A DNA stretch of 36,158 bases. It comes from Candidatus Kaiserbacteria bacterium. Its GTDB lineage: Bacteria > Patescibacteriota > Minisyncoccia > Phycocordibacterales > UBA918. Under the pieces are notes generated by a model that was not told the origin of the DNA, searched no databases, and saw nothing but the letters and a program-made list of their open reading frames with translations. The stretch lies in the NCBI GenBank assembly GCA_007116965.1, contig SKHJ01000053.1, positions 1 through 36,158 on the forward strand. The letters are read 5' to 3'. Within the stretch, counting starts at the first letter, position 1; each line of letters starts with the position of its first letter. Below, piece by piece: positions 4,146 through 35,159 of the stretch. Both the position numbers and the translations under genes were made by a program.

Positions 4146-5566
4146 GCAAGCAGCACCAACACAAACCCAAGTCCCCGGAGACCACTGATCGTACGATTGG
4201 GCAGATTCGTGGCGTGTTGGGACAGATCGTGCATATCCACTGCACCGAATCGTACCGACCAGCGCTACGCGAACTCTTGAGTACGACGGAATATCCCGAG
4301 GTGCGTTTGGAAGCGTACGCATACGATGGTCCGCACACACTGTATTGCTTGTTGTTGACTGACGTTGATCAAATCGAGCGCGGTCTGCATGTGGTTTCAA
4401 CCGGTACTCAGATCACTATCCCGGTCGGGCAGGCGGCCTTGGGTCGGGTGATGGATCTCTACGGCGAGGCGATCGATGGAGGGTCACCACTTACCACCGA
4501 CGAGACGCGAACTGTGTACCGGAGTCAGACAATGACTCAGGGTATGCGCGTGGTGCGACCAGCCGAAGTGCTTGATACTGGCATCAAGGCCATTGATTTC
4601 TTTACACCCTTACTGCGGGGCGGCAAGATGGCCTTGGTCGGGGGAGCGGGAGTGGGTAAGACCACCTTGCAGGAGGAGATATTGCGCAATGTGGTCTACG
4701 GTGGTAGTGGCGTGTCGGTCTTTGCTGGGATCGGAGAGCGTATTCGAGAAGGACATGATCTGTGGTCGTCACTCAAGGAACATAATGTGCTTGATCGAAC
4801 GGCGCTTATCTTTGGACACATCAACAAGAACGCGGCGGTTCGTACGCTGACTGCGGCCTCAGCCGCAACCCTGGTCGAGTATTTTCGTGATGAGGCTAAA
4901 CAGGACGTCCTTTTCTTTGTTGATAATGTCTTTCGTTTCTTGCAGGCGGGGAGTGAGCTTTCGACGCTTTTGAGTGAATTGCCCTCGGAGTTCGGGTATC
5001 AGCCGACCTTGCAGTCAGAGATCGCGCAGTTTGAGAACCGACTGTATTCGACCGAGGACGCTTTCGTGACTTCGGTGCAGACGGTCTATGTACCAGCTGA
5101 TGAGTTTGGTAATCCGGCCGTGGCGGCCACTATGCCACATATGGACGCGGTGGTGGTACTCTCGCGGGAGATGACCCACGACGGCAGGTATCCGGCTATT
5201 GATCCCTTTACTTCGACCTCGAGCGCCCTCAACCCAGCGATGGTCGGCAGCGGACATTATCTGGCGGCCACTACCGCGGTCGAGATGTTGCAACAGTACA
5301 AACAGTTGGTGCGCATCGTCTCGATCGTGGGGGAGGAAGAGCTCTCTATCGAGAACCAGAAGCGATACTCGCGAGCGCAAAAATTACTCAATTATATGAC
5401 GCAGTCGTTTATCTCAACTGCGGTCGAAACGGGGCGGGAGGGGGTAAAGGTAACCCGAGCCACCGTGGTGGCTGATGTCCAGGCCATTTTGGGTGGGGTG
5501 GTCGATCGCGTGCCGGCTGATGAGTTCCTTTATATTAGCGATTTGAAGACGGCCGGACTCATATAG
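4142..5566 (+). CDS. atpD: F1 ATP synthase subunit beta
   Basis: Walker A GGAGVGKTT, then GIGERIREGHDLW, DVLFFVDNVFRF, FGYQPTL, TVYVPADEF and GRYPAIDP. ATGA overlap with atpG. Confidence 0.95.
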   Translation: MSKQHQHKPKSPETTDRTIGQIRGVLGQIVHIHCTESYRPALRELLSTTEYPEVRLEAYAYDGPHTLYCLLLTDVDQIERGLHVVSTGTQITIPVGQAALGRVMDLYGEAIDGGSPLTTDETRTVYRSQTMTQGMRVVRPAEVLDTGIKAIDFFTPLLRGGKMALVGGAGVGKTTLQEEILRNVVYGGSGVSVFAGIGERIREGHDLWSSLKEHNVLDRTALIFGHINKNAAVRTLTAASAATLVEYFRDEAKQDVLFFVDNVFRFLQAGSELSTLLSELPSEFGYQPTLQSEIAQFENRLYSTEDAFVTSVQTVYVPADEFGNPAVAATMPHMDAVVVLSREMTHDGRYPAIDPFTSTSSALNPAMVGSGHYLAATTAVEMLQQYKQLVRIVSIVGEEELSIENQKRYSRAQKLLNYMTQSFISTAVETGREGVKVTRATVVADVQAILGGVVDRVPADEFLYISDLKTAGLI

Positions 5567-5906: not shown

Positions 5907-5986
5907 ATACTGTGTAGACAAGCAATTTCGCCACGACGGTTATGCTACACTGAAGATGTCTGACCAGCCGTCAGGCGACTTTGAGT

Positions 5987-8900
5987 ATGCGCATACGTGG
6001 AGGACCGAAAAGCTGGAGTAAACGCCTAGAAAGCATAGTGCATATAACGGTGGCTGTTTTGACGGTGACGATGTTTGCCTATTCGGCGGGTGTGCGTGTT
6101 GACCTGGAACGTTTAAATGCTGTTACGCAGGTGGCACAGATCGGCAGTGCGCTGCCGACAGAGACCACCGGGCTGACACCTGAGAGTGAGTCACAGAGCC
6201 GCTGGTATGAACCGATTACGACACAAGTGCGGCACGTCTGGTCGGTAGTGGGAGAGACGTGGTACTTGGTACGGACCGGGGCGGTGTTTCAGTTGGCGCA
6301 GGTAGGAACGTCAGTGCCGGAGGGTGAGGCGGCCGCAGCTGCGCTGCGGCCGCCAGGTAGTTGGCCACTGCAGCCTGCCACCGATCCGTCGGCAGGCACT
6401 TTGATCGTCAACACGCCACTACTGGTTGATAACACCCTGACGGTCATTGGTACCAGCTCGTTGGCCACAACCACGCTGGGCGGTCCGTTGGGCGCACTCG
6501 ATGCTTCATTTACTAACGTCAGTATTGACGGCACGCTTACCATCGACACGCTGACGGCCGCGGCGGTGACGGCAGGCACGGTCGGTGCTACCGCTATTGA
6601 TACTGCCACACTAGGCGCGACAACGGTCGAAACAGCCGATTTGGGCGTTCTTAATCTCGCTACCATTGCCGAGCTGATCGTTGATAGCGCAGCTAGTCTT
6701 GGTTCGTTGCAAGTGTTGGGTGCGAGTGAGGTCACTACCTTATTGGCTACCGGTGTTTTGACGGCCCAGGGAGGTATGGTGACGCAAGGAGCTGATATCG
6801 ATGCTGGTGAAGGTGAGATCTTTGCTAGTAATATCGTTAATGAGATTGTCGCCGGGGAGAACGTGACTATCACCGGTACCCAGAATGTGCCGATCATCTC
6901 AGTCAGTGCGGATGATCTGGTTGGCGTACTCAGTCTAAATGGTCAAAGTGGTGACCTGGATCTGGTGGGCGGGGTAGATATCACTATTAGTGGTTTGACC
7001 ATCAGTAGTAATGCTACGTTGGCGACCGTACGGTCCCGTGGTGGTTGTGTCGACTGCATCACCGATGGCGATGTGCGGGCCGACCTGACCATCAGTGGCG
7101 GTACTATCAACGGCACCCCAATCGGCCTGACGACACCCAGTAGCGCGGCGTTTACTACCGTGGCTGTCGGTACCACTACCAGCTCAACAACCCTCACCGT
7201 TGGGGGTGGTTTAGAGGTGAGCGAACGGATCTTGATGACAGGTAGTGCCACCTCGACTTTCTTTGGTAGCGTTAATCTCGAGAGCGGTTGTTTTGCTATC
7301 GGTGGGGTGTGTATTGAAGGGGTAGAACCGTCGAGTTACGTGGGACTAAATGATACACCGGCCGGCTTGACCAACAACGCTCTGCAGTTTGCGAACGCGA
7401 GCGGTACCGCCTTGACCCAATCAGCCAACTTGGTCTTTGCTGACGGCCGGCTCGGAGTCGGAACAGCTACCCCAGAGCGAACACTGACCGTGGTAGGGGA
7501 TACCTTACTCTCCGGCGCGTTGCGCGTAGAGAGTAGTACCAGCTCGCAATTTGTGGGTGGTATCAACGTGACTGGTGGCTGCGTGTCGGTGGATGGGGTG
7601 TGTCTCGTCGGTGGAGTTAATCGTTTAGCTGATCTGACCGATGTGACCGTGGTGGCTACCAGTACTGGAGACATACTGCTGTTTGACGGATCAGACTGGA
7701 CCAATGTGCCGACCTCTAGCTTAGGCCTGGGTGATGGACGGTTTCGTGGGTTATCAGATACTCCCGACTTGTTTACGCCGAGTGCCATCTCCTTTGTCAA
7801 CGCTGGCGGTTCGGCTTTGACGCAGGACAGTGAGTTTATCTACAGCGGCGGTCAGCTCGGAGTAGGGACGAGTGACTTGCGGACAACGTTGACGGTCGGG
7901 GGTGATATCAGCGTGCTCGGTGCGGAGGCACTACGGTGGTACGACAGTGATAGCACCCACTACGTTGGCTTTCGAGCTCCAAGTACGTTGACAGGTTCGA
8001 CCGTTTGGACCTTGCCGGCGAGTGACGGTAGCGCCAACCAACTTCTGGTGACCGATGGCGCTGGTAATTTATTCTTTGATGACCTTAGTGCGCTGGGTGG
8101 TGGCGCTAACCGCTATGTTGAATTGACCGACACCCCGGGCGCCTTTGTTGGCGCCGGAGTGATCCCGTTTGTCAACGCGACGAGCTCTGCCTTGACCCAA
8201 GCGAGCACCTTTGTCTTTCGAGAAGGGCGGCTGGGGGTGGGTGTAAATGACCCCGGACAGACTTTGACTGTACAGGGAGATATACGCTTCCAACCCAATG
8301 CCCAGGACATCGGAATGGTGTACTCGACCAGTGGCAATCGGTTTGGTTTTGGTACACCCAGCATCAGCGACAATCGTATTGCGTTACGGGGCTCACTAAC
8401 CCAATTCGGAGGAGTACAGGGTGATCCTTACGAGCTTGTTCCGCGTGGATCGGTGACAACTTTACCTGCCCGAGTAAACGACATTGTAGTGGTCGGTAAT
8501 CTGGCCTACGCGGTGACCGATTCGGCCAACAATGACTTCCATATCATTGACGTCACTAATCCAGATAATCCGGTCGAGATCGGCCAACTTGACCTACCTT
8601 TGAACGCTAACGGTCGGGCCGTGACTATCCTTGGCCAGTATGCGTACGTGGTGTCGACTTCACAGGGTGATGATTTTCATGTCATCAATGTTAGTGATCC
8701 TACGGACCCAGAGATCGTGAACTCACTACCGTTACCGACGATACTACCAACATCTGTTAATGATGTAGCAATTAAGGGCAACTACGCCTATGTGGTCGCC
8801 AACCGCACGACTGATGCAGCCGATAGACAATTCTTTGTTATTGATATTACCGATCCGACGCAGCCATCGTTCGTAAACGAGCTATTTCTGGCTGACTCTG

Positions 8901-10372
8901 GTACTGGTATCGATATTGCGGGTAACTTTGCGTACATCACCTCAGCGGGGAGCGGTGACGATCTGCAGGTCTTTGATATCAGTGACCCGGTCAACCCAGT
9001 ACTACTTGATGGGATCAATTTACCTACCCAGGCCAATGATGTAGTAGTGCGGGGTCGGTACGCGTATGTTGTCACTAATTCAGCGGGCAACGATTTTCAT
9101 GTCATCGATATCCTTGACCCATTTGCCATGGACGAAGTTGGTTCATTGCCGCTCCCAACCAGCGCTACCGCTCTGGTGGTCAACGGTCGCTATGCCTATG
9201 TGACCACAGAAGCAGCCGGTCAAGATATCCACGTCATTGACATATTCGACCCTAGTCAACCTCGACTGATCGGCGGGTTTGACCTACAGTCCGGTGACGG
9301 GTTAGCGATAGCGGTCAGTGGTCGCTATGCCTACGTCGGTGGAAGTGGTACCAACAACCGCTTTAGGATATTTGATGTCTCAGGGGCTGAATTGCAATCT
9401 GCAGTTGTTCACTCACTGCTCGGCGGTTCTTTGGATGTCAGTAGTAATGTCGTTGTGGCGGGACGGGTCAGCGCTGGATTGGGGGTAAGTGCGGGAGTAG
9501 AGGGGTTGCGGACCGATGGACAACTGATAGTGCAGGGCACGGGTGACTCGTTCCTGGCGGGCCGTCTTGGTATCGGTACCAGCACGCCGAGTAGCGAGCT
9601 GACTGTGGCCGGTACGATTCGCTCTACTAGTATTGCTGGTTGTGATGGTCTCGATACGGATATGTTCGGTAATATCATTTGCTATTCGCCATCAGATGAG
9701 CGGCTCAAAACCGGCGTACAGAACATTGAAGGAGCCCTAGACTCTGTCTTGCAACTACAAGGCGTCTCGTTCTATTGGCTGGACGAGGAACGGTTTGGGC
9801 CACAGCGTGAACTTGGTTTTATTGCGCAAGAGGTGGCCGAGATATTCCCCGAGGCGGTACGTGAACGAGAGGAATATTGGTCGCTCAACCCTGCTCGTTT
9901 AGTGGCAGTGGTGGTAGAAGCCATCAAAGAGTTGTGGGAGGTAGTGCGAGGCAACCAGGATAAGCTAGCTGAGTTGGAGACACGGGTCGCAGAACTCGAG
10001 GCCCAACAGTCCGCAGCTATTAGTAACACGCCGGGCACTGAAGGGGGTACGACCATTGTGGGAGAAAATCTCTCGACCACAGTAGAAGACGAGGAACCCG
10101 AAACCGCTACCACCACCGCTACGACCAGTGAAATGTCCGCTGCAACGCTGGTGGAGGATGGTGTAGATACAGCCACCAGCTCAACAGCTGCCAGTACGGA
10201 TGTGACCGATACCGACGAGTCAGTGGAGTCGCCATCATCAGCTACCACCACGAGTGCTACGTTGCCAGAGAATGGTATCGAAGCTGTGCCGACGCCAGAG
10301 GTGGAGTCTGATACAGACCAGGGTAATGAGGATAGTGCGATTGCGGATGAACTGACCGAGGACGAAGAATAG
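5987..10372 (+). CDS. Giant N-terminally anchored surface protein: fibre/beta-helix repeats + 7 LVIVD repeats + peptidase S74 intramolecular-chaperone domain + acidic S/T tail
   Basis: 1461 aa from ATG 5987 (TTG 5981 is also possible). Single N-terminal TM (IVHITVAVLTVTMFAYSAGV). Thr/Gly/Val/Ala-rich repetitive body, with the domain blocks listed separately below. Confidence 0.85.
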   Translation: MRIRGGPKSWSKRLESIVHITVAVLTVTMFAYSAGVRVDLERLNAVTQVAQIGSALPTETTGLTPESESQSRWYEPITTQVRHVWSVVGETWYLVRTGAVFQLAQVGTSVPEGEAAAAALRPPGSWPLQPATDPSAGTLIVNTPLLVDNTLTVIGTSSLATTTLGGPLGALDASFTNVSIDGTLTIDTLTAAAVTAGTVGATAIDTATLGATTVETADLGVLNLATIAELIVDSAASLGSLQVLGASEVTTLLATGVLTAQGGMVTQGADIDAGEGEIFASNIVNEIVAGENVTITGTQNVPIISVSADDLVGVLSLNGQSGDLDLVGGVDITISGLTISSNATLATVRSRGGCVDCITDGDVRADLTISGGTINGTPIGLTTPSSAAFTTVAVGTTTSSTTLTVGGGLEVSERILMTGSATSTFFGSVNLESGCFAIGGVCIEGVEPSSYVGLNDTPAGLTNNALQFANASGTALTQSANLVFADGRLGVGTATPERTLTVVGDTLLSGALRVESSTSSQFVGGINVTGGCVSVDGVCLVGGVNRLADLTDVTVVATSTGDILLFDGSDWTNVPTSSLGLGDGRFRGLSDTPDLFTPSAISFVNAGGSALTQDSEFIYSGGQLGVGTSDLRTTLTVGGDISVLGAEALRWYDSDSTHYVGFRAPSTLTGSTVWTLPASDGSANQLLVTDGAGNLFFDDLSALGGGANRYVELTDTPGAFVGAGVIPFVNATSSALTQASTFVFREGRLGVGVNDPGQTLTVQGDIRFQPNAQDIGMVYSTSGNRFGFGTPSISDNRIALRGSLTQFGGVQGDPYELVPRGSVTTLPARVNDIVVVGNLAYAVTDSANNDFHIIDVTNPDNPVEIGQLDLPLNANGRAVTILGQYAYVVSTSQGDDFHVINVSDPTDPEIVNSLPLPTILPTSVNDVAIKGNYAYVVANRTTDAADRQFFVIDITDPTQPSFVNELFLADSGTGIDIAGNFAYITSAGSGDDLQVFDISDPVNPVLLDGINLPTQANDVVVRGRYAYVVTNSAGNDFHVIDILDPFAMDEVGSLPLPTSATALVVNGRYAYVTTEAAGQDIHVIDIFDPSQPRLIGGFDLQSGDGLAIAVSGRYAYVGGSGTNNRFRIFDVSGAELQSAVVHSLLGGSLDVSSNVVVAGRVSAGLGVSAGVEGLRTDGQLIVQGTGDSFLAGRLGIGTSTPSSELTVAGTIRSTSIAGCDGLDTDMFGNIICYSPSDERLKTGVQNIEGALDSVLQLQGVSFYWLDEERFGPQRELGFIAQEVAEIFPEAVREREEYWSLNPARLVAVVVEAIKELWEVVRGNQDKLAELETRVAELEAQQSAAISNTPGTEGGTTIVGENLSTTVEDEEPETATTTATTSEMSAATLVEDGVDTATSSTAASTDVTDTDESVESPSSATTTSATLPENGIEAVPTPEVESDTDQGNEDSAIADELTEDEE
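7337..8281 (+). repeat. Three copies of a ~55-aa tail-fibre-like unit spaced ~125-135 aa apart
   Basis: The units are YVGLNDTPAGL..ALQFANASGTALTQSANLVFADGRLGVGTATPERTLTVVGD, FRGLSDTPDLF..AISFVNAGGSALTQDSEFIYSGGQLGVGTSDLRTTLTVGGD and YVELTDTPGAF..VIPFVNATSSALTQASTFVFREGRLGVGVNDPGQTLTVQGD. A fourth partial copy (GRLGIGTSTPSSELTVAG) lies near 9550-9620. Confidence 0.8.
8468..9397 (+). repeat. Seven tandem ~44-aa LVIVD-type repeats (predicted 7-bladed beta-propeller)
   Basis: Repeat cores are GNLAYAVTDSANNDFHIIDVTNPDNP, GQYAYVVSTSQGDDFHVINVSDPTDP, GNYAYVVAN..RQFFVIDITDPTQP, GNFAYITSAGSGDDLQVFDISDPVNP, GRYAYVVTNSAGNDFHVIDILDP, GRYAYVTTEAAGQDIHVIDIFDPSQP and GRYAYVGGSGTNNRFRIFDVSG. Confidence 0.85.
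9692..10009 (+). other. Peptidase S74 / 'chaperone of endosialidase' self-cleaving C-terminal domain
   Basis: SDERLKTGVQNIEGALDSVLQLQGVSFYWLDEE...GFIAQEVAEIFPEAV...WSLNPARLVAVVVEAIKELWEVV, followed by the coiled coil LAELETRVAELEAQ. This matches the S-D-x-R-x-K ... G.iAQEv..v.P..V ... L...l..aiqeL pattern of phage tailspike and tail-fibre intramolecular chaperones. Confidence 0.8.
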
Positions 10373-10495: not shown

Positions 10496-11182
10496 ATGCA
10501 GTTCACCAAAGAACACCCAGTTGTTTCTGCCTTGATATCGACCATCTTGATCACTCCGCTGCTCTTTTTCATGTATTTTGCCTTTGAACCACGAGTCGTG
10601 TTGAGTCAATCTGAAGAGGAGACCTTCATTATCGAACAAATAATTGGTGAAGAGATCTCCTTCCAAGTACCTCCTGGTGATGTGGAGATGGACGGTACAC
10701 TAGGTGGTTTGTTGGGAGGAATCAGTAATGGTTCAACTACCTTCGCGGTAGCTACCAACGCACCGCTAGGTTACCAAGTGGAGATCGCGTTCACCCAAGC
10801 AGATGCGATGGTTAACAACGCCTCTTCCACGTACTTTATTCCCAACCTCAATCCTCGCGAATTTGAGTTCTCAACCTCGACTGTCGCTGGTAGCGCTGGC
10901 TTTGCGTACACGGTGACTGGTGGTACGCATGTTGATAACTTTTTCGCTGATGATGGTGATAACTGTGGTACTGGTTCAAACTACTCAGCTGACCGCTGTT
11001 GGTTTATGGAAGAAACCGCTACCACGCCACGGATAATCGTAGACTCAAATTCACCAACTGATGGTCAGGGTGATGAGACGATTCTTTACTTCAGAGTGGC
11101 AGTAGACCAGAACCCATCACTGCAGCTACCGACTGGCACCTATACTGCCACTGCTACCCTTACTGCTGCTCCGCAGACCTAA
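10496..11182 (+). CDS. Secreted/anchored beta-rich surface protein, WxL-like but Trp-less (paralogue A)
   Basis: N-terminal hydrophobic signal or anchor. Colinear motifs are shared with 12422-13189: GGISNGSTTFAVATNAPLGYQVEI, FEFSTS, DDGDNCGTGSNYSADRCW, and the C-terminal PTGTYTATATLTAAP. Confidence 0.6.
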   Translation: MQFTKEHPVVSALISTILITPLLFFMYFAFEPRVVLSQSEEETFIIEQIIGEEISFQVPPGDVEMDGTLGGLLGGISNGSTTFAVATNAPLGYQVEIAFTQADAMVNNASSTYFIPNLNPREFEFSTSTVAGSAGFAYTVTGGTHVDNFFADDGDNCGTGSNYSADRCWFMEETATTPRIIVDSNSPTDGQGDETILYFRVAVDQNPSLQLPTGTYTATATLTAAPQT

Positions 11183-11195
11183 TTTTGCGGCTTTC

Positions 11196-11223
11196 TTGCA
11201 AATGTTACGACAAGAGTTACAAT
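11196..11223 (+). promoter_or_regulatory. Candidate sigma70-type promoter TTGCAA-16 nt-TACAAT for the 11329-14806 operon
   Basis: TTGCAA (11196-11201) and TACAAT (11218-11223) lie in the 146-nt gap upstream of the 11329 gene. Confidence 0.35.
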
Positions 11224-11328
11224 AGGTCAGTAAGCTGGCCAGCAGGTTGTTAGTTGGGTGTTGTTTAGATAGAGGCCGCGATGTGTATGATTTTTATTCC
11301 TATATCCGTAAAGGTACGCGCGCAAGGC

Positions 11329-12399
11329 ATGACATCATTACGTTTGCTGACCTTGTTGTCACTCTTGCTGGTGGCAACGATACCTGTTGGGGTGCTGGCC
11401 GAGACAGGGGCAGCACCAGAAGACCTGGCGGTGCTTGATGAGGAAGTATTAGTGGTTGCAGATGATGATACAGCAGCAGTGACTGCTGACACCTCTACTC
11501 CGGAAGATAGTTATCGCAGAGAACCGCTTGTTAGTCGGGAGGTGTTTGGTGATTTTGTCATCGGTCCGGGTCGGTTTGACGTCGAGTTAGCTCCAGGGCA
11601 GTCGCGTACTGTCGAGATGACCATAGCTAATCGGATGGGGGAGGGTAAGATTTTTAGTTTCGAGACCGAGGATATGGTGGGTGCTCGTGACCCAAACCGC
11701 ACGATCGACCTACTGGGTGACCAGGAAGGGCCGTACAGCCTGCGCGACTTCATTTCTGTCTCGCACCAGACTTTTTTTCTAGAGCACGGACAGCGTGCTC
11801 GGGTACCCGTCACTATCACGTTACCTCCAGATGTGGAGCCGGGTGGACGCTACGGTTCATTGTTGGTGTCGGTTACCTCTCGTCCGAGCCAACAGGTAGC
11901 AGCTGGCACCCGTTCGGGATCGGCTATTGTCAGTCGTATTGGAGCGCTTTTCTTTGTCACGACACCTGGTGATATTGTGCGCGATAGCTCACTAACCAGC
12001 TTTAGTACACGTAATCGGCAACGGTTCTTCACAGCCGGCCCAGTTACCTTTGATATCACACAGGAGAACTTCGGGTCGGTACACACTAATCCGTACGGTC
12101 GGATGGTCATCACCAATATCTTGGGTGAAGAGGTGGGTCGGGTAAACCTGGACCCCTGGTACGTAATGCCGCAAGCAATCCGGACCCGTGAACTCACCTG
12201 GGACCGGGAGTTCTTGTTCGGGCGATATACCGCTACTGCCCAGATCAACCGAGGCTACGATGATATCGTCGACGAAAAGGCTTTCGTCTTCTACGTCGTA
12301 CCGTGGCGTCTAGGAGTGATAGTATTTGGGATTCTTTTCCTCGGCTTCTTGCTTCTCCGCTTGTTCTTCAGCCGCTTCGAACTCAAACGGAAATCGTAG
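11329..12399 (+). CDS. Surface protein with signal peptide, two beta-sandwich-like modules and a C-terminal TM anchor (DUF916/DUF3324-like architecture)
   Basis: The start is moved to ATG 11329, which opens on the signal peptide MTSLRLLTLLSLLLVATIPVGVLA. Module 1 is 'FDVELAPGQSRTVEMTIANRMGEGKIFSFE ... RARVPVTITLPPDVEPGGRYGSLLV'. Module 2 is 'VTFDITQENFGSVHTNPYGRMVITNILGEEVGRVNLDPWYVMPQAIRTRELTW..FGRYTATAQI'. The C-terminal TM is LGVIVFGILFLGFLLLRLFF, followed by a KRK tail. Confidence 0.6.
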   Translation: MTSLRLLTLLSLLLVATIPVGVLAETGAAPEDLAVLDEEVLVVADDDTAAVTADTSTPEDSYRREPLVSREVFGDFVIGPGRFDVELAPGQSRTVEMTIANRMGEGKIFSFETEDMVGARDPNRTIDLLGDQEGPYSLRDFISVSHQTFFLEHGQRARVPVTITLPPDVEPGGRYGSLLVSVTSRPSQQVAAGTRSGSAIVSRIGALFFVTTPGDIVRDSSLTSFSTRNRQRFFTAGPVTFDITQENFGSVHTNPYGRMVITNILGEEVGRVNLDPWYVMPQAIRTRELTWDREFLFGRYTATAQINRGYDDIVDEKAFVFYVVPWRLGVIVFGILFLGFLLLRLFFSRFELKRKS

Positions 12400-12421
12400 C
12401 TAAATCAACTATGTCAGCACA

Positions 12422-13189
12422 ATGTCACGTTCTATCTATATCACAACTGTTTGCGCGCTGATCTTCACTCCGCTGGTGTTGTGGGGAATTGGGGTAGTGG
12501 GGGCGCAGGTGATGAGTGGTACCACTTACCAGATCGAAAGTGATAGTATCAATTTTGGTGGTGGCTTTAGCGCCTCGGATAACTATACGCTCAAGGATAC
12601 ATTGGGTGAGATTGCGACCGGCGAGTCAGAGAGCGAATCATTTCAGTTGCGTGCGGGCTACCGTCAGTTACTAGCAGTTGCCATCGCCATCTCAGCACCG
12701 ACTCCAGTGACTATGGATCCGCCCATCCCAGGTGTGACCGGTGGTTTTTCGACGGGGTCGACCAGTGTTACCGTGACCACTGATAACCCGGCTGGCTACG
12801 AGCTCGTGATCCGAGCTGAGAGCGAGCCAGCTATGCAAGGACCTAACGGAGCCAGTATCGGTGATTACGAACAGATTGGTGATGCAGATTTTACTTTTGC
12901 TACCAGTAGTACAATGGCGCACTTTGGCTTCTCGGTGGTAGGCGAAGACGCGGCGGCTCGTTTTCGTCATGACGGGTCTAATACCTGTGGTAGCGGAACC
13001 ACCAATACACCGCTGCGCTGTTGGGTTGGATTGCGCAGTTCTCCAGAGTTGGTAGCCCAGCGCACCACCAGTAACCATCCAGAAGGGAGGGAGACTACTT
13101 TCAACTTCCAAGTTGGTATTGGTGATGCGGTATCGCAGCCGCCAGGTGTGTACATAGCTACTACTACCGTGACTGCCTTGCCATTATAA
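12422..13189 (+). CDS. Secreted beta-rich surface protein, WxL-like but Trp-less (paralogue B)
   Basis: Signal peptide MSRSIYITTVCALIFTPLVLWGIGVVGAQV. Motifs are GGFSTGSTSVTVTTDNPAGYELVI, FTFATSS, HDGSNTCGSGTTNTPLRCW, and the C-terminal PPGVYIATTTVTALPL. These are colinear with 10496-11182. Confidence 0.6.
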   Translation: MSRSIYITTVCALIFTPLVLWGIGVVGAQVMSGTTYQIESDSINFGGGFSASDNYTLKDTLGEIATGESESESFQLRAGYRQLLAVAIAISAPTPVTMDPPIPGVTGGFSTGSTSVTVTTDNPAGYELVIRAESEPAMQGPNGASIGDYEQIGDADFTFATSSTMAHFGFSVVGEDAAARFRHDGSNTCGSGTTNTPLRCWVGLRSSPELVAQRTTSNHPEGRETTFNFQVGIGDAVSQPPGVYIATTTVTALPL

Positions 13190-13198
13190 TCCAAGATA

Positions 13199-14806
13199 AT
13201 GAACGCTTGGTTTAAAATCAGTCTTTGGTTACTTCTGCTACTTCCGGTCGGAGCGCTAGCACAAGCAACTAGCCAGTCATTTACAGTTGACCAGTGGTTT
13301 GGTGAACCGCCGACCGAGCCACCGAGTATACCGGCTAACGTAATGGCCACCCCAGTGGCATCCAGCCAGATCGATATAAGTTGGGACGCTTCCACTCACA
13401 CCGCCCCAGTGGTCGGGTACCAGGTCTTTCGTGACCTGGTACAGGTTGCTACGACTGCGGGCACCTTCTTCGCCGATACTGGTCTAACGGCCAGTACTAC
13501 CTACAGCTATACGGTCCGGTCGTTTGATGGGTTTGGTAATATTTCTAGCTCCTCTCTACCAGTGGCAACCACTACTTTTGCCCTGTCGCCGCCGGCACCG
13601 GACCCCGAAGACCCAACTGGACCAAGTAGACAGGCCAGCCAGGTCCCCTTACCGACCTTGGTAGAATTTTCGCTTGAACCAGGGAGTCACAACGCGCGTC
13701 TGGCGTTCACAACTTCTGTACCGGTATGGTATTCGATCAGCTACGGACAAGGGGAGACTTTGACGGAAGGTCAGATCCAGACGGATCGTTTCGCTAGCGA
13801 TCACGTGACCGTCCTAACGGACCTTGAGCCAGGTACCACGTATACGTTTGAGCTCTACGTGACTGATCGGTTCAATCGTGAAGTATTGCTCCGACAAGGA
13901 ATGTTCACGACCAGCGAGCGGTTTGCGGTGGAAAGTCCAGAGAATGTCCTCGGCTTACAGGCCAATGCGGTCGATTCGGACGTGTCACTGCGTTGGCAGA
14001 ACCCTAGCTTTACTGGCTTTGCCTACGTTCGGGTCGTACGCAATCACCGTTTCTATCCATTGGACCCATGGGACGGATTTGTGGTTTACGAAGGAGTCGG
14101 TAACGACTTCTTCGATACGCGAGCCCTGCTGGAGTTCGATCGACAGTACTATACCGTTTTTGTTTACAATCTTAATGGTGATCACTCATCGGGAGCAATC
14201 GCGAGTGCTGTGCGCGGCGTCCGGATACCGCCACTGACACCACCGCCGGTGGTACCCGAGCCAACACCGACAGCAACCAGCACTCCCGACGAGCTGGTTT
14301 TGAGCACGGTACGCGTCAGTGATATTGAATTCATCCAGCAAGACGAGCTGATCGTGCCGCCTGTCGATACTGTATCGTTACTGCGGGGTGTACCGTTTAT
14401 AGTTCGTCTGCCATACGAGACGGTGCTGCCACACCTGAAGGTGATCATCTTTACACTCTACGTACCGGAGGGACAACCGGCTACAGTTTCGTATTTGCTT
14501 CGCAGTAACCCAGAGCAGACCCATTATCAAGCTACCATTCCAGCGTTGACGACGCAGGGTGAACACCCGTTTACGGTCACGGTGTACGATGTACAAACAG
14601 AGCGTCAACACACTGTGGTAGGTACGATCACACTGACTGCACCTGATGAACCATTGCCAGCTGGTGATCCCACGTTGTTGCTGTTGTTGTACCTCTTTCT
14701 ATTAAGTGTAGCAGGTCTGTTCGCTACGATGCTGGCTCGGTGGCTTTGGTTCTTACTCTACCGACGACGGCGAGAGGCGGCTGAGGATAAGCCAGCTCTA
14801 TCTTGA
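13199..14806 (+). CDS. Surface protein with signal peptide, three FN3-like domains, an Ig-like domain and a C-terminal anchor
   Basis: Signal peptide MNAWFKISLWLLLLLPVGALAQA. FN3 signatures are 'ATPVASSQIDISWDAS..VVGYQVFRD..FADTGLTASTTYSYTVRSFD', 'ARLAFTTSVPVWYSISYG..LEPGTTYTFELYV' and 'DVSLRWQNP..YVRVVRN..YYTVFVYN'. The C-terminus is LPAGD, then a ~30-aa hydrophobic stretch, then RRRRE. Confidence 0.7.
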   Translation: MNAWFKISLWLLLLLPVGALAQATSQSFTVDQWFGEPPTEPPSIPANVMATPVASSQIDISWDASTHTAPVVGYQVFRDLVQVATTAGTFFADTGLTASTTYSYTVRSFDGFGNISSSSLPVATTTFALSPPAPDPEDPTGPSRQASQVPLPTLVEFSLEPGSHNARLAFTTSVPVWYSISYGQGETLTEGQIQTDRFASDHVTVLTDLEPGTTYTFELYVTDRFNREVLLRQGMFTTSERFAVESPENVLGLQANAVDSDVSLRWQNPSFTGFAYVRVVRNHRFYPLDPWDGFVVYEGVGNDFFDTRALLEFDRQYYTVFVYNLNGDHSSGAIASAVRGVRIPPLTPPPVVPEPTPTATSTPDELVLSTVRVSDIEFIQQDELIVPPVDTVSLLRGVPFIVRLPYETVLPHLKVIIFTLYVPEGQPATVSYLLRSNPEQTHYQATIPALTTQGEHPFTVTVYDVQTERQHTVVGTITLTAPDEPLPAGDPTLLLLLYLFLLSVAGLFATMLARWLWFLLYRRRREAAEDKPALS

Positions 14807-14857: not shown

Positions 14858-15892
14858 ATGGTCAATGTGGCGATAAATGGATTTGGTCGAATTGGGCGGG
14901 CGTTCTTTCGTATGGCGTACGAACACCCCGAACTGAACATCGTAGCCATCAATGATCTGGGTGAACCAGAGAATTTGGCGTATCTACTTGAGTTCGACTC
15001 GGTATATGGACGCAGTAGTCAGCCGGTGGTGATCGAGGACGGAATGTTGGTGGTGGGGGAGAAACGAGTCAAGCTACTACAAGAACGGGAGCCACAGGCC
15101 TTACCGTGGGCTGATATGCAAGTAGATATCGTCATAGAGTCTACTGGTTTCTTTGCAACATATGAACTGGCCAAGAAGCATCTCGAGGCGGGAGCAAAGC
15201 GCGTAGTCCTCTCAGCTCCCATCAAGGGAGATCCGGCAGCGGTAGACGTCAGTGGGGCGACAGTCCTGATGGGCGTCAATGATGAACGTCTCGGTGAAGT
15301 GCAAATATCTTCGAACGCATCTTGTACCACCAATGCCACGAGTCCGGTCATTGGTATCTTGCACGAAGCAATTGGTGTACAGAAGGCCGTCTTGAATACA
15401 GTGCATGCCTATACCGCTTCACAATCATTGGTCGATGGTCCGAGTAAAAAAGATTATCGAAGCGGTCGGGCAGCTGCTCTCAACGTTATACCGAGCACTA
15501 CGGGCGCGGCCCAAGCAACTACCGAGGCGCATACTGACCTGGCCGGCAAGTTCGACGGGATGGCTATGCGGGTACCAGTGCCGGTCGGTTCGATCGTTGA
15601 TATTACCTTCGTAGCAACTCGTCCGACTAGTGTCGAAGAGGTTAATAATGCTTTAATCGCTGCCGCTGAGAGTGAGCGATGGCAGCCGATCTTTGCGGTA
15701 ACCGATGAACCTCTCGTATCGAGTGACGTTATCGGCGCTCGCTATGGCTCCATCGCTGATATCAGTTTTACCCGGGTGGTGGACGGTGATTTGGTGAAGG
15801 TGTTGGCCTGGTATGACAACGAAAGTAGTTACACGCACACGCTATTGCTCCACGTTGAACGTATCGCACAGCACCTGAGTACGCAGCAGTAA
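14858..15892 (+). CDS. gap: Glyceraldehyde-3-phosphate dehydrogenase
   Basis: NGFGRIGR Rossmann motif, active site SNASCTTNA, and WYDNE near the C-terminus. Confidence 0.95.
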   Translation: MVNVAINGFGRIGRAFFRMAYEHPELNIVAINDLGEPENLAYLLEFDSVYGRSSQPVVIEDGMLVVGEKRVKLLQEREPQALPWADMQVDIVIESTGFFATYELAKKHLEAGAKRVVLSAPIKGDPAAVDVSGATVLMGVNDERLGEVQISSNASCTTNATSPVIGILHEAIGVQKAVLNTVHAYTASQSLVDGPSKKDYRSGRAAALNVIPSTTGAAQATTEAHTDLAGKFDGMAMRVPVPVGSIVDITFVATRPTSVEEVNNALIAAAESERWQPIFAVTDEPLVSSDVIGARYGSIADISFTRVVDGDLVKVLAWYDNESSYTHTLLLHVERIAQHLSTQQ

Positions 15893-15897
15893 TACGT

Positions 15898-16392
15898 ATG
15901 AGTGAACGACCAGCTCAGTTTGACCACGTGTACTTGGCCGCCGATCACGCTGGCTTGGATCACAAGGACGCGGTCCGTGAGTGGCTCTTAGCTGAAGGGT
16001 GGTCGGTGACCGACTTTGGTGCTTTTGTCCGTAATGACGAAGATGATTTTCCCGTCTTTATCAGCCAGGTGTCACGAATCATTTCGCAAAATCCGCAACA
16101 AGCCGGTATCATCTTCGGTGGTTCAGGCAACGGGGAAGCGATACTCGCTAACCGTTTTCCCAACGTGCGAGCAGCGGTGTACTATGGCGGACCTGATGAA
16201 ATTGTCACGCTGTCACGCGAACATAATGACAGCAACATTCTCTCAATTGGCGCTCGTTTTGTTGATACCGATACGACCAAGCGTTTGATCTGGGAGTGGC
16301 TTCATACACCGCGATCGGAACAGGCCAAGTATATTCGTCGCAATCAACAGATCGCACATATTACCAAGCAGATCAGACCAACCACCACCTAA
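15898..16392 (+). CDS. rpiB: Ribose-5-phosphate isomerase B (Glu-type, as in actinobacterial RpiB)
   Basis: 'LAADHAGLDHKDAV' and 'GIIFGGSGNGEAILANRFPNVRAA'. The site reads GGSGNGE rather than CGTGIG, i.e. a Glu catalytic base as in the Mycobacterium-type enzyme. Confidence 0.85.
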   Translation: MSERPAQFDHVYLAADHAGLDHKDAVREWLLAEGWSVTDFGAFVRNDEDDFPVFISQVSRIISQNPQQAGIIFGGSGNGEAILANRFPNVRAAVYYGGPDEIVTLSREHNDSNILSIGARFVDTDTTKRLIWEWLHTPRSEQAKYIRRNQQIAHITKQIRPTTT

Positions 16393-16398
16393 AATCGT

Positions 16399-17073
16399 AT
16401 GCCTACTGACCAGATCATCATTCCTGCTCTGATTCCAGAAGATCCCCAAGATCTACGGGACGAGCTGCAGGGTATGCCATGGTTGTACGAAGTACATATC
16501 GATATTGTGGACGGTCAGTTTGTCGACAGCCTCTCGTGGCCATTTGAGCCGGCAGGAGAACCGGAACAGATCGCTGATATTTTAGAGCAATACTCAGCGG
16601 AGATTGACCTGATGTGTTTGCAACCACTACCGATAGCTGAAGTGTGGGCGGCAACAGGAGCTGAGCGTTTGGTCTTACACGCCGAGACGATCTCAGTGGA
16701 TGATTTTGTCTATTTGGCTGATCGCTTCCCAGACGTTAGTATCGGTGTATCGATGCTTAATGATACCGAGTGGTCTGTGATAGAGCCGTTTATACCTGTC
16801 GCTGATTTCATACAGCTGATGGGGATTCTGGTCATCGGGGCACAGGGGGCACCGTTTGATGAGCGAGTGTTAGAGCGAATCGGAGCCGTAACAGCCGCTG
16901 ACCCAGCTATCCCGATCAGCGTTGACGGCAGTGTCAACGCTGAGACCATTCCCCGCTTACGTCAAGCCGGAGTAGATCGTTATGTGGTTGGTTCTGCTTT
17001 GTTACGGGCTGAAGATCGCGAAATGCAATATCAGTACCTGGACAGTCTGGCTCGTCCACAACTGTCTGCCTAG
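16399..17073 (+). CDS. Ribulose-phosphate 3-epimerase family protein (divergent)
   Basis: 'VHIDIVDGQFV' matches the Rpe 'H.DvMDG.fVpN' motif. 'LHAE', 'SVDGSVNAETIPRLRQAGVDRYVVGSAL' and the pathway context also fit. Confidence 0.6.
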   Translation: MPTDQIIIPALIPEDPQDLRDELQGMPWLYEVHIDIVDGQFVDSLSWPFEPAGEPEQIADILEQYSAEIDLMCLQPLPIAEVWAATGAERLVLHAETISVDDFVYLADRFPDVSIGVSMLNDTEWSVIEPFIPVADFIQLMGILVIGAQGAPFDERVLERIGAVTAADPAIPISVDGSVNAETIPRLRQAGVDRYVVGSALLRAEDREMQYQYLDSLARPQLSA

Positions 17074-17087
17074 GGCAAGTATCGAGC

Positions 17088-17096
17088 TGGTATACT
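17088..17096 (+). promoter_or_regulatory. Extended -10 box TGGTATACT, 10 nt before the transketolase ATG
   Basis: TGGTATACT, then ACGTATTAGT, then ATG 17107. No SD. Confidence 0.5.
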
Positions 17097-17106
17097 ACGT
17101 ATTAGT

Positions 17107-18000
17107 ATGAACTATTTACATAGTAACGACGTAGCTCGGTTAGAGAGAAAAGCCAACGAGATACGCCAAAGTATCATCGAGATGTTGACGGCAGCGCAAA
17201 GCGGGCACACGGCCGGACCGCTCGGGATGGCTGATGTCTTCACACTTCTCTATTTCGAGGTGCTTAAGCACGATCCCCAGAATCCTGATTGGGAAGAGCG
17301 AGATCGAGTGGTGCTCTCCAACGGTCACATTTGTCCGGTCTTGTACGCTACCCTCGCCCACGCTGGGTATTTCCCGGTCGAAGAATTACTGACGTTGCGC
17401 CAATTTGGTAGTCGTCTCCAGGGCCACCCGCACCGCGGCACGCTGCCGGGTATTGAGACCAGCTCAGGACCACTTGGCTCTGGCTTGTCACAAGCTATTG
17501 GTATGGCGCTCGCGGAGCGAATGAACAATCCGTACTCTGCTAAGTACTTCTATTGTCTGACTGGTGACGGCGAAGTAAACGAAGGGCAGATCTGGGAGGC
17601 GGCGATGTTGGCAGGTAAAGAGAAGCTACATAATTTAATCGTTATCATTGACCGCAATGGTATTCAGATCGATGGGTATACGAAAGATGTAATGCCACTG
17701 GAGCCATTACGGGCAAAATTCGAGGCCTTTAACTTTGATGTGCAGGAGGTTGATGGTCACAATATTCGGAGCATCAACGACGCGATTGGTAAGGCACAGG
17801 CCGTCTACTCACAACCATCTGTTATTATTGCCCACACGATTGCTAGTAAGGGCGTCGATGTTTTCGAGCGTGATTTCCGCTGGCACGGCAATCCGCCAGG
17901 CAAGGGTCCTGAGGATCGGGTGCCACGAGATCAACAAGCCCAGGTGGCGCTAGAGAAGTTGCGGACGTTGGCAGGGACGATATCGCAGGAAACTTTATAA
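17107..18000 (+). CDS. tkt: Transketolase, N-terminal (thiamine-diphosphate-binding) subunit
   Basis: 'SGHTAGPLGMADVFTLLYF', 'RDRVVLSNGHICPVLYA', 'GPLGSGLSQAIGMA', 'TGDGEVNEGQIWEA' and 'IIDRNGIQIDG'. Confidence 0.9.
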   Translation: MNYLHSNDVARLERKANEIRQSIIEMLTAAQSGHTAGPLGMADVFTLLYFEVLKHDPQNPDWEERDRVVLSNGHICPVLYATLAHAGYFPVEELLTLRQFGSRLQGHPHRGTLPGIETSSGPLGSGLSQAIGMALAERMNNPYSAKYFYCLTGDGEVNEGQIWEAAMLAGKEKLHNLIVIIDRNGIQIDGYTKDVMPLEPLRAKFEAFNFDVQEVDGHNIRSINDAIGKAQAVYSQPSVIIAHTIASKGVDVFERDFRWHGNPPGKGPEDRVPRDQQAQVALEKLRTLAGTISQETL

Positions 18001-18009
18001 TATTCACGT

Positions 18010-18999
18010 ATGCGAGCAGCACATTTAGACACACGAATTTGTAGCCCTGAAGTCGAGTTAGTACCCAACCGACGGGGTTATGGTGAGGGACTCCTAGAGG
18101 CCGGCAAACGCGATGCGCGAATCGTGGCGTTAGCAGCTGACCTGACCGAATCGACACAAACGCATATGTTTGCTGAGGCATTTCCGGATCGTTTCGTCCA
18201 ATGTGGGGTGGCGGAGCAAAATATGGCGTCGGTAGCGTCTGGTATGGCGGCGATGGGTAAGATACCCTTCATTGCTTCATACGCAATGTTCTCACCTGGC
18301 CGTAGTTGGGAGCAGATCCGTACCACTATCGCTTACAATGATGTAAACGTGAAGATAATCGGCGCTCATGCTGGTGTCTCTGTTGGACCAGACGGAGCCA
18401 CCCACCAAGCAATTGAAGACATTGCTATTATGCGGGTGATTCCCAATATGGTAGTAATTGCTCCGGCTGACGTGCACGAAGCACGTAAGGCGGTCTTGGC
18501 CGCCGCGCAATACGAAGGGCCGGTGTATATCCGTCTGGCTCGCGCACCCTCACCAGTGGTCACCACACCAGAGTCACCATTTGTAATCGGTAAGGCAGAG
18601 TACTGCTTTGAAGCGGCTGGCGCGCCAGAGCAGACCGTTGGTCTGGTGACAACGGGTACGCTTCTCCATCATGGCTTGGAAGCAGCCGAAGCCTTGCAAC
18701 AGAGTGGCTACGGAGTATTGCTACTTCATATGCCAACTGTTAAACCACTTGATACCGAGGCACTACTGGCTCTGTCGGAGCGTTGTGTCGGTCTGGTGAC
18801 AATCGAAGAGCACCAGCAGGCGGGGGGGTTGGGTTCGGCGGTAGCTGAATTCCTCAGCGCTGCGCGACCCACGCTCATAATCCCAGTGGGGGTAGCCGAT
18901 CAGTTTGGTCAGTCGGGTGATCCAGAAGAGTTGATCACCCACTATCACTTAGACACGCCAGCAATTGAGATGGCTGCCAAGCGGGTCTTGGGAGGGTAG
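18010..18999 (+). CDS. tkt: Transketolase, C-terminal (pyrimidine-binding + C-terminal domain) subunit
   Basis: 'FPDRFVQCGVAEQNMASVASGMA', 'GVSVGPDGATHQAIEDIAIMRVIPNM' and 'GPVYIRLAR'. It lies adjacent to the N-terminal subunit gene. Confidence 0.9.
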   Translation: MRAAHLDTRICSPEVELVPNRRGYGEGLLEAGKRDARIVALAADLTESTQTHMFAEAFPDRFVQCGVAEQNMASVASGMAAMGKIPFIASYAMFSPGRSWEQIRTTIAYNDVNVKIIGAHAGVSVGPDGATHQAIEDIAIMRVIPNMVVIAPADVHEARKAVLAAAQYEGPVYIRLARAPSPVVTTPESPFVIGKAEYCFEAAGAPEQTVGLVTTGTLLHHGLEAAEALQQSGYGVLLLHMPTVKPLDTEALLALSERCVGLVTIEEHQQAGGLGSAVAEFLSAARPTLIIPVGVADQFGQSGDPEELITHYHLDTPAIEMAAKRVLGG

Positions 19000-35129: not shown

Positions 35130-35137
35130 ATGAGCCG

Positions 35138-35146
35138 AAGCTACCA
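35138..35146 (-). promoter_or_regulatory. Weak extended -10 TGGTAGCTT (minus strand), 17 nt after the palindrome's TTGACA and 8 nt before ATG 35129
   Basis: The minus strand reads TTGACA-17 nt-TAGCTT-CGGCTCAT-ATG. Confidence 0.35.
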
Positions 35147-35159
35147 CAGAGCGACATTA

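Follow-up and report, generated by a model that had tools for sequence, protein, structure and literature searches.

Cells of the Patescibacteria, also known under the name candidate phyla radiation (CPR), are thought to live attached to other microbes. To our knowledge, next to nothing has been learned of the way in which most of them establish contact, and we know of no CPR pilus outside the type IV class described so far other than the Pam pilus. A second system relevant here, the WxL/Csc clusters of Lactobacillales and Bacillales, combines small and large WxL proteins with a WxL-interacting protein (WxLIP) of the DUF916-DUF3324-transmembrane (TM) layout and an LPXTG protein; such clusters act as factors of colonisation and virulence, and WxLIP is found in enterococci and lactobacilli. 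The hairpin loop of WxLIP supplies a strand completing the beta-sandwich of the WxL protein (PMC10599100), which is donor-strand complementation in all but name. The Pam pilus is encoded by the pam operon of Ca. Mycosynbacter amalyticus, and cryo-electron microscopy of the filaments of this organism led to the pilins PamA and PamB (Troman et al., bioRxiv 10.64898/2026.03.03.709456). According to the same preprint, PamA, PamB and PamE are two-domain pilins built of an N-terminal domain (NTD), a linker strand and a truncated immunoglobulin (Ig)-like C-terminal domain (CTD), and PamT is a single-domain pilin with a proposed tip position, described without a donor or linker strand. PamC and PamD are PapD/FimC-like chaperones with an unusual C-terminal TM helix, and PamR, an RbmA-like protein of fibronectin type III (FnIII, FN3) domains, to which a strand is added at the N-terminus and a TM helix at the C-terminus, was proposed to be the pilus terminator/anchor. 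ATP synthase genes and a gene for a tail-fibre-like protein were reported to lie next to the pam operon, which was described mainly from Saccharimonadia and Microgenomatia, with no mention of Paceibacteria, Parcubacteria or Kaiserbacteria (bioRxiv 10.64898/2026.03.03.709456). The subject of the present analysis is a cassette of four co-oriented genes, here called P1 to P4, at positions 10496-14806 (+ strand) of a 36,158-nucleotide (nt) stretch of contig SKHJ01000053.1 from a Candidatus Kaiserbacteria bacterium, referred to below as the window.

The cassette probably encodes a minimal and distant Pam-type pilus. This would be a thin fibre of the donor-strand type on the surface of an ultrasmall, monoderm Patescibacteria cell, assembled with the help of a chaperone but no usher, and its likely function is contact with a host cell or a surface. 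The first-pass annotation of this DNA had offered archaic-pilin-like subunits plus an Ig-fold assembly factor as the alternative to a WxL-type complex, and this alternative turned out to be the better reading; it corresponds to the Pam pilus of CPR. All features given below lie on the + strand unless stated otherwise. P1 (10496-11182), an open reading frame (ORF) of 228 amino acids (aa), codes for a secreted pilin-like subunit and is the more divergent of two paralogues. P2 (11329-12399, 356 aa) codes for a protein of two Ig domains and a C-terminal TM helix; an upstream ATG at 11281, preferred in public gene calls, extends it to 372 aa. P3 (12422-13189, 255 aa) is the second secreted pilin-like subunit and a distant member of the PamT family, and P4 (13199-14806, 535 aa) is an FN3 protein with a C-terminal TM helix, a PamR-like anchor. 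P2 and P3 are separated by 22 nt and P3 and P4 by 9 nt. The coordinates of the ORFs and the two gaps had been reported in the same form before and agree with the ORF listing.

Relatives of P3 were scanned in one genome per species, 203 of which matched; 80 loci were listed and fetched, and the presence of each gene was scored by tblastn of the window proteins against these 80 loci. P3 was present in 80/80, P2 and P4 in 78/80 each, and P1 in at least 61/80, with a few more loci carrying a P3-like copy in the place of P1. The downstream gap gene was found in 57 loci, rpiB in 54 and rpe in 54. The gene order P1-P2-P3-P4-gap-rpiB-rpe was constant, and the median intergenic gaps across orthologous loci were 16, 5 and 1.5 nt. 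Each of the four families has more than 800 relatives in the databases, which together with the maintained gene order indicates that the four genes are real. Whether the four-gene neighbourhood is conserved across Patescibacteria, as had been asked before, can thus be answered positively, the order being kept in 78-80 of the 80 loci. Nearly all listed loci bear Patescibacteria labels (Kaiserbacteria, Paceibacteria/Paceibacterota, Nomurabacteria, Parcubacteria). Many third-party assemblies among them are labelled 'Saccharibacteria', a label that could not be verified; the loci labelled 'uncultured Candidatus Saccharibacteria' share the Kaiserbacteria-type synteny, and their label probably reflects a labelling or binning issue. 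The same probably applies to loci L051 and L063, found in bins labelled Nanoarchaeia and Acidimicrobiales, rather than a true distribution.

The AlphaFold2 model of P2 built on a 79-sequence alignment (mean predicted local distance difference test score, pLDDT, of 88) comprised a signal peptide, two beta-sandwiches (residues 63-212 and 220-323) and a TM helix at residues 326-354 (12304-12390), which is followed by the basic tail ELKRKS. A hydrophobic C-terminus with a tail of the FEFKRK type was observed in 78/78 orthologues. Both lines of evidence agree with the layout read earlier from the letters, namely a signal peptide, two beta-sandwich-like modules and a TM segment with a KRK tail. The Pfam family WxLIP_PGBD (DUF916, PF06030) matched the window protein with E=3e-4 and 21.2 bits, below the gathering threshold (GA) of 27.3, and it matched 67 of the 79 members of the P2 family, with the best E=7.7e-8. 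The P2 family profile retrieved the Enterococcus faecium protein EfmWxLIP1 from the PDB (9i25_C and 9i1y_A) at E=5e-9, and the same WxLIP structures (9i1y/9i25) were the top PDB matches of the P2 model in Foldseek, with E~1e-12 and an alignment of about 270 columns spanning both Ig domains. The entry 9i25 represents WxLIP crystallised 'bound to long WxL'. The next Foldseek matches were Vibrio cholerae RbmA and then the chaperones of chaperone-usher systems CfaA, CsuC, Caf1M, EcpB, FimC, DraB and YadV (1e-9 to 1e-5). No match to Pfam DUF3324 was detected in P2 or its family, and none to the PapD families (PF00345/PF02753) in P2. P2 is a remote but real homologue of WxLIP/DUF916, as the annotation of the middle gene as a relative of DUF916/DUF3324 proteins had supposed. 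The sequence and structure matches, together with the TM helix, define it as a membrane-anchored, PapD-like, WxLIP-homologous protein.

The part of P2 that could act on a partner lies in the first Ig domain. Residues 184-212 (11878-11964), a loop and the next strand, aligned with the loop region of EfmWxLIP1. Where the hairpin loop of WxLIP lies, the confidence of the P2 model dipped, with a pLDDT of 68-75 for residues 181-200. The strand following the loop is conserved as S-x-I-[IV]-[SA]-R-I-G-x-L-F-F-V, with R203 invariant. By analogy with WxLIP, residues 184-212 are a candidate G1-like complementing strand, which may complete the Ig fold of a partner.

P1 and P3 are paralogues. In BLASTP they shared 29% identity over 198 residues (E=5e-17), and the alignment of their families in hhalign reached a probability of 100% with E=9e-72 over 226 columns. 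The motif blocks GG.S.GST...V.T(N/D).P.GY, F.F, the Cys pair and G.Y.AT.TLTA are among the invariant or near-invariant columns of the 80-sequence alignment, and the Cys pair was present in 80/80 P3 and 76/78 P1 orthologues. The two secreted paralogues with four shared motif blocks, proposed in the first-pass annotation, were thus recovered by BLASTP, hhalign and the orthologue alignment alike, at a level well above chance. No Pfam family matched P1 or P3. The sole NCBIfam match of the two proteins was that of P3 to NF058579 (CPR_pilus_PamT), with E=1.4e-7 and 31.2 bits over residues 10-126, the equivalog cutoff being 240. This model matched 78 of the 80 members of the P3 family (best E=8.4e-14), all far under the cutoff. 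Judged by these sequence scores, the relation of P3 to PamT is one of remote homology and not of equivalog membership.

The AlphaFold2 model of P3 (pLDDT 83) contained a signal-peptide helix, a segment at residues 31-71 with a pLDDT below 50 and a beta-sandwich at residues 88-254, mostly above 90. The N-terminal extension, residues 29-85 (12506-12676), consists of three tandem 'NY-x-L...G' units, which are candidate donor or linker strands. These approximately 57 residues are the best-conserved part of P3, yet they had a pLDDT below 50 in the monomer model; such low order of the monomer fits a donor strand because a strand of this kind becomes ordered only in the groove of a partner. In the Ig-like beta-sandwich (12683-13183) lie the Cys pair, Cys189-Cys200, and a conserved strand at the C-terminus, G-x-Y-x-A-T-T-T-[LV]-T-A. 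Among the top 30 Foldseek matches of the P3 model in the PDB, 24 were chaperone-usher pilins (FimF/G, CsuA/B, PapE, the pilin domain of PapG, CfaB and FimA), and the second-best match was the TasA fibre (8aur; 232 columns, TM-score 0.31-0.33). The figures for individual matches ranged from 1e-3 to 1e-1 in E and from 0.3 to 0.54 in TM-score per target; because these per-match statistics are weak, the likeness to the pilin fold was taken as a consistent trend and not as proof.

In P1, the signal peptide is followed by a single short N-terminal strand and by an Ig-like domain that contains the Cys pair. The strand, residues 43-58 (TFIIEQIIGEEISFQV, 10622-10669), follows the pattern 'F-T-[IV]-x-Q-x-I-x-x-E-I-S-F', in which Q48 is at least 95% conserved, and 59/61 orthologues have an aromatic-x-aliphatic motif after the signal peptide. 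This single, shorter strand (TFIIEQIIGEEISF) aligned with the third unit of the P3 extension and would, like it, be a candidate donor strand. P1 diverges faster than P3, the identity between genomes being 28-39% and 45-57%, respectively. Its first place in the operon and its faster divergence make P1 a candidate for the exposed main subunit of the shaft. For P3, a distal position or the part of an adaptor is suggested by the homology to PamT and by the existence of relatives that bear lectin domains.

P4 directly follows P3 in 78/80 loci. By its sequence, it is predicted to contain a signal peptide, an N-terminal strand, a Pro-rich linker, FN3-type domains, a TM helix and an RRRR tail. Pfam fn3 matched two stretches with E=1.2e-10, FN3 matches were also obtained in the PDB, and a third, FN3-like stretch was detected as Pur_ac_phosph_N at residues 173-219. 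The description of P4 as a 3xFN3 protein is therefore plausible by sequence, with two stretches being fn3 and the third FN3-like. A further beta-rich region, at approximately residues 370-480, follows the FN3-type domains. The N-terminal strand, residues 26-35 (QSFTVDQWFG, 13274-13303), precedes the Pro-rich linker and is a candidate terminating or anchoring donor strand. Its motif was found in 65/72 orthologues, with a P[PST]..P linker next to it in 61/72 and Phe28 conserved at 80-90%; P1 had its strand motif at the mature N-terminus in 59/61 orthologues, and P2, used as a control, had one in 34/78. By analogy with the extra strand of PamR, this strand may terminate or anchor the fibre. The C-terminal TM helix, at approximately residues 492-521 (14672-14761), was identified by hydropathy in the window protein and in 70/72 orthologues.

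These parts can be arranged into a mechanism. All four proteins would be exported by Sec, given the signal peptides visible in their sequences, and P2 would stay held in the membrane by its C-terminal helix. At the outer face of the membrane, the strand at residues 184-212 of the first Ig domain of P2 would temporarily complete the Ig fold of exported P1 or P3, by analogy with WxLIP and PapD-type chaperones. The N-terminal strand or strands of the incoming subunit would then displace the P2 strand, producing a head-to-tail linkage, and the fibre would grow from its base. At the end of the fibre, the N-terminal strand of P4 would plug the last subunit, and a tether to the membrane would be provided by the FN3 stalk and the TM helix of P4, as proposed for PamR. 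P1 may form the main shaft and P3 would be distal or an adaptor, the order of subunits being uncertain.

An exhaustive search with the P3 profile over 1.84 billion representative proteins yielded 1,597 clusters at E<=1e-3, of which 750 reached E<=1e-10 and 250 reached E<=1e-30. Long proteins made up 49 of the 149 top matches and fell into three classes. In the first, about 17 representative clusters are in-frame P2-P3 fusions, which keep the TM helix of P2, a short basic loop and the signal peptide of P3 with an 'AQ|VM'-type cleavage site. Examples are P0364, P0374, P0382, P0387, P0392, P0395, P0408, P0409, P0412, P0417, P0492 and P0507. An origin of these long matches in gene-call artefacts was ruled out, since the ordered TM-loop-signal peptide arrangement is kept across many divergent clusters. 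Read from their sequences, such fusions would be chaperone-pilin polyproteins with a cytoplasmic basic loop, whose halves could be split by signal peptidase. As natural fusions they are Rosetta-stone evidence that P2 and P3 act together.

In the second class, the 'extension + Ig' module of P3 is C-terminal to DUF2341 plus a ConA-like lectin domain (Laminin_G_3), to FN3 arrays or to a Gly-rich domain. Long relatives bearing the module, of up to 2,187 aa, include P0379, P0400, P0411, P0445, P0464, P0454, P0439, P0372 and P0404. In their predicted domain order, the lectin, FN3 and Gly-rich relatives match PamA/B and two-domain pilus adhesins, which have an NTD-linker-CTD layout. Such relatives with an NTD occur in other genomes and are absent from the window. 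In the third class, a domain of about 350 aa is inserted between the P3-type extension and the Ig domain, which sets the extension apart as a separable module. The PamT model aligned with the long relatives across the module, up to its positions 26-238 of 241, and in P0372, a member of the inserted-domain class, positions 5-89 aligned to the signal peptide and extension alone. Because positions ~5-89 of NF058579 align there, the PamT family seems to include the extension.

Several observations weigh against a Pam-type pilus. The PamT match of the window protein reached 31 bits against a cutoff of 240 and spans only its N-terminal half. PamT was described in the preprint without a donor or linker strand, whereas the extension is the best-conserved part of P3; either a strand region at the N-terminus of PamT was overlooked or NF058579 was built from broader sequences. 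For true chaperone-usher pilins, AlphaFold often puts the extension in the protein's own groove, and it left the P3 extension out of that of P3. The support for the pilin fold is weak for each match (best E=1.3e-3, TM-score per target <=0.54), and the pilins forming the known Pam filament, of the PamA/B/E type, are missing from the cassette. None of the NCBIfam Pam models other than that of PamT matched the window proteins, and the likeness of P2 to PamC/D and of P4 to PamR was drawn by analogy with published descriptions and not from sequences. The closest solved relative of P2, WxLIP, is known from a static complex and not from a polymerising system. Finally, the locus is known here from its genes and from monomer models, from which donor-strand assembly and exchange are inferred.

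The strongest competing explanation is a static complex of the WxL/Csc type, in which P2 would hold P1 and/or P3 by strand complementation without forming a polymer, P4 would act independently and the whole would serve as a short-range adhesin or wall scaffold. This is related to the proposal of the first-pass annotation, a WxL/Csc system devoid of the signature tryptophans. A DUF916-type P2 and the general logic of a small incomplete sandwich paired with a strand-donating TM protein were right in that proposal; WxL domains in P1 and P3 and an LPXTG protein were not found. Trp is absent at both W-x-L motif positions of P1/P3, and the Pfam WxL model (PF13731) matched 0/80 members of the P3 family (plus P1), even at E<=10. 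A WxL family alignment was prepared from annotated plasmid loci of Lactococcus, Enterococcus and Lactiplantibacillus with 120 homologues and compared by hhalign in local, global and low-MAC (maximum accuracy) modes, with full-length sequences and trimmed mature domains and with reversed-sequence controls; the comparison was rerun with a second hhalign. The P1 and P3 families reached probabilities of 0.1-0.9% and scores of about 15, versus about 13.5 for the reversed controls. The correspondence drawn earlier between 'GY.L' and 'GW.L' did appear as the top local match of the untrimmed run ('VTTDNP-AGYELVI / VTDNRGSETGWTLQM'), but it covered only 14 columns at a probability of 8.6%. Searches of PDB sequences with P1, P3 and the P3 profile gave nothing significant; they are uninformative on the WxL identity because a genuine WxL protein and the WxL profile likewise find no PDB chain. 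At the sequence level, the identity of P1/P3 as WxL domains was rejected.

A counterpart of the LPXTG protein did not emerge either: no LPXTG-like motif was present in P4, in any P1-P4 orthologue or in the large proteins of the window. The only sortase gene of the window is about 20 kb from the cassette, and with no LPXTG motif and no sortase in or beside the cassette, the involvement of sortase was rejected. A sortase-assembled Gram-positive pilus was discarded as well, in view of the missing LPXTG motif and the lack of an adjacent pilus-specific sortase.

The static complex accommodates the detectable homology of P2 to WxLIP by sequence and structure, the crystallisation of WxLIP with a WxL protein (9i25) and the completion of the WxL sandwich by its loop strand (PMC10599100). 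The parts list is similar too, consisting of small secreted proteins, a DUF916-type TM protein and a large anchored protein, and the in-frame P2-P3 fusions would equally fit a stable 1:1 complex. It is less able to account for the subunits themselves, which have neither a WxL signal (0/80 in Pfam; hhalign below 1% and equal to reversed controls) nor LPXTG motifs. The conserved N-terminal strands of P1, P3 and P4, that of P3 being disordered in the monomer model, would have no role in it, P3 matches PamT and has a fold closest to polymerising pilins, and the synteny with ATP synthase and tail-fibre-like genes is as in pam operons. Such a complex is accordingly regarded as unlikely, though it deserves to be taken seriously.

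It is considerably harder to believe that the four genes code for unrelated Ig/FN3 envelope proteins, merely syntenic and with separate roles (e.g., S-layer-associated or cell-wall-binding), without mutual assembly. In its favour, folds of the Ig-like and FN3 kinds are generic, P3 has weak structural matches throughout and a curated family threshold was reached solely by the FN3 domain of P4; nevertheless, gene order and tight spacing are kept in 78-80 of the 80 genomes, natural P2-P3 fusions exist, and the link to PamT and that to WxLIP/PapD-type proteins agree with each other while being independent. Least probable of all is a chaperone-independent donor-strand fibre of the TasA/archaeal-thread type, with P1/P3 self-assembling outside the cell and P2 and P4 as nucleators or anchors like TapA, since, although chaperone-free donor-strand fibres of monoderms and archaea are known (PMC9715654, PMC12518558) and 8aur was the second-best match of P3 over 232 columns, the TM-score to TasA is low (0.31-0.33), no Pfam signal of TasA/camelysin or of a SipW-type signal peptidase was found in P1-P4 or their families, the fold and homology of P2 are those of strand-donating partners (WxLIP, PapD-like chaperones) and P2 adjoins P3 nearly universally and is sometimes fused to it.

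The surroundings of the cassette were also inspected. The F-type ATP synthase alpha, gamma and beta genes (atpA/G/D, 1658-5566), recognised by Pfam, serve as an upstream context marker; atpD also lies upstream of the cassette in loci L025, L030 and L033, and ATP synthase genes precede it in other loci wherever the flank extends far enough. Directly upstream of the cassette, a giant tail-fibre-like secreted protein of 1,463 aa is encoded at 5981-10372. It contains, by Pfam, seven LVIVD beta-propeller repeats and a Peptidase_S74 domain, and it has a long acidic Ser/Thr-rich C-terminal tail. Peptidase_S74 is the intramolecular chaperone domain of phage tail fibres and endosialidases, and the protein is possibly a separate adhesin. 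In other genomes, the gene upstream of the cassette is usually very large (900 to more than 2,000 aa) and highly variable, and Peptidase_S74 was found in only 8/63 such genes, for which reason the tail-fibre-like gene was treated as a context marker and not as a core part. Directly downstream lie gap, rpiB, rpe and a split transketolase (14858-18999), followed by translation genes. Flanked by ATP synthase on one side and by gap-rpiB-rpe-transketolase on the other, the surface-structure operon is surrounded by co-oriented genes of core energy and carbon metabolism. Nearly all genes of the window (1-36158) are on the + strand and the cumulative GC skew climbs monotonically, which is consistent with one replichore and a strong co-orientation with replication.

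The P1-P2 spacer is the only long spacer of the cassette (98-146 nt). A weak terminator-like hairpin at 11171-11190 (+), with a 7-bp stem and a T-rich tail, overlaps the P1 stop codon. A role for it as an attenuator or terminator tuning the P1:P2 ratio, as occurs in pilus operons, was rejected, because such sites were no commoner than in shuffled sequence; the spacer folded no better than its shuffles (z=0.45). Elsewhere in the window, ORFs without a Pfam match were noticed at 27696-28841 (+), 25246-25683 (+) and 1348-1866 (+). The first codes for 381 aa with an N-terminal TM segment and is preceded by a family-2 glycosyltransferase. The last, of 172 aa, may encode the delta subunit; its neighbours are atpA on one side and, on the other, a putative gene for an ATP synthase b-like protein (313-1335). 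The sortase-domain gene (35278-36069, +) adjoins a gene on the opposite strand (34056-35147, -) for an unannotated protein of 363 aa, in which a TM segment at the N-terminus is followed by an acidic/Pro-rich linker and a C-terminal part rich in beta structure. Given that the large proteins of the window have no LPXTG-like signal, no substrate of this sortase was recognised among them.

The kind of system proposed here was already known from one preprint and one NCBIfam model, both of 2026. New are the minimal four-gene form consisting of single-domain subunits only, its wide spread in Kaiserbacteria/Paceibacteria-type genomes (203 species-level genomes and 1,597 representative clusters), the detectable homology of the chaperone-like P2 to Firmicute WxLIP, and the chaperone-pilin fusions and lectin-domain variants, which support joint action and ligand binding. 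The cassette is a concrete candidate for a host- or surface-contact apparatus in another large CPR group. In addition, P2 ties together two separate literatures, those of WxL clusters and of CPR pili. The Pam preprint (bioRxiv 10.64898/2026.03.03.709456) contains no mention of WxL or DUF916, the WxLIP paper (PMC10599100) does not mention chaperones, pili or CPR, and no paper of the literature collection searched connects CPR pili with WxL/DUF916. We tentatively raise the possibility that P2, the Firmicute WxLIPs (DUF916/DUF3324) and PamC/D form one ancient family of membrane-anchored strand-donating chaperones of monoderms. If this were true, WxL/Csc complexes and Pam pili would be diverged forms of one 'usher-less chaperone' pathway, and the cassette, kept in hundreds of Paceibacteria-type species, would be the minimal form of this pathway, a single-domain pilus, relatives of which swap in lectin-like domains as adhesins.

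Set against known systems, the cassette shares with TasA fibres of Bacillus and with archaeal threads and cannulae a monoderm envelope and beta-sandwich subunits, TasA being among the best structural matches of P3. Those fibres differ in having no PapD/WxLIP-like partner and, in Bacillus, in the operon organisation tapA-sipW-tasA, and no sequence similarity to them was seen. Chaperone-usher pili (Pap, Fim, Csu, CFA/I, Caf1) are closer in fold, as P3 resembles their pilins and P2 their periplasmic chaperones. In common with those pilins, the subunits are extended by a strand at the N-terminus, and their C-terminal strand is conserved, with an aromatic residue close to a Gly that lies 14 residues from the end; the logic of donor-strand complementation and exchange is proposed here as well. 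Unlike in chaperone-usher systems, there is no outer membrane and no usher, none of the four cassette genes being usher-like. P2 is membrane-anchored and not soluble, similarity to PapD or fimbrial families is not seen at the Pfam level, and an FN3 protein with a TM anchor would serve as the tether of the fibre.

With WxL/Csc clusters, the cassette has in common a protein homologous to WxLIP, in which two Ig domains precede a C-terminal TM helix and a loop takes the place of the WxLIP strand that completes the partner, as well as small secreted beta-sandwich proteins adjoining it and an anchored multi-domain protein in the operon. It differs from them in that P1/P3 have no W-x-L motifs or detectable WxL domains, P4 is anchored by a TM helix instead of LPXTG and sortase, and the second domain of P2 is not recognised as DUF3324 by sequence. 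The subunits here carry conserved N-terminal strand extensions, and the host belongs to the Patescibacteria and not to the Bacillota.

From the Pam system, the cassette is set apart by two single-domain paralogues in place of the two-domain pilins PamA/PamB/PamE, by one chaperone-like protein (P2) versus two (PamC, PamD), and by approximately three FN3-type modules and a further domain in P4 as compared with the two FnIII domains of PamR. It is located in Kaiserbacteria/Paceibacteria-type genomes and is very distant in sequence. Both systems belong to CPR lineages, the loci related to the cassette coming almost only from Patescibacteria records, and P3 is a single-domain PamT-like subunit with a significant but remote hidden Markov model match. 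P2, PapD-like with two Ig domains and a C-terminal TM helix, corresponds to PamC/D in the layout described, and P4, with its FnIII domains, N-terminal strand and C-terminal TM helix, resembles PamR in described layout and sequence features. Cys pairs occur in the subunits of both, neither an usher nor a secretin accompanies them, and, as in pam operons, ATP synthase genes and a tail-fibre-like gene (LVIVD + Peptidase_S74) lie upstream.

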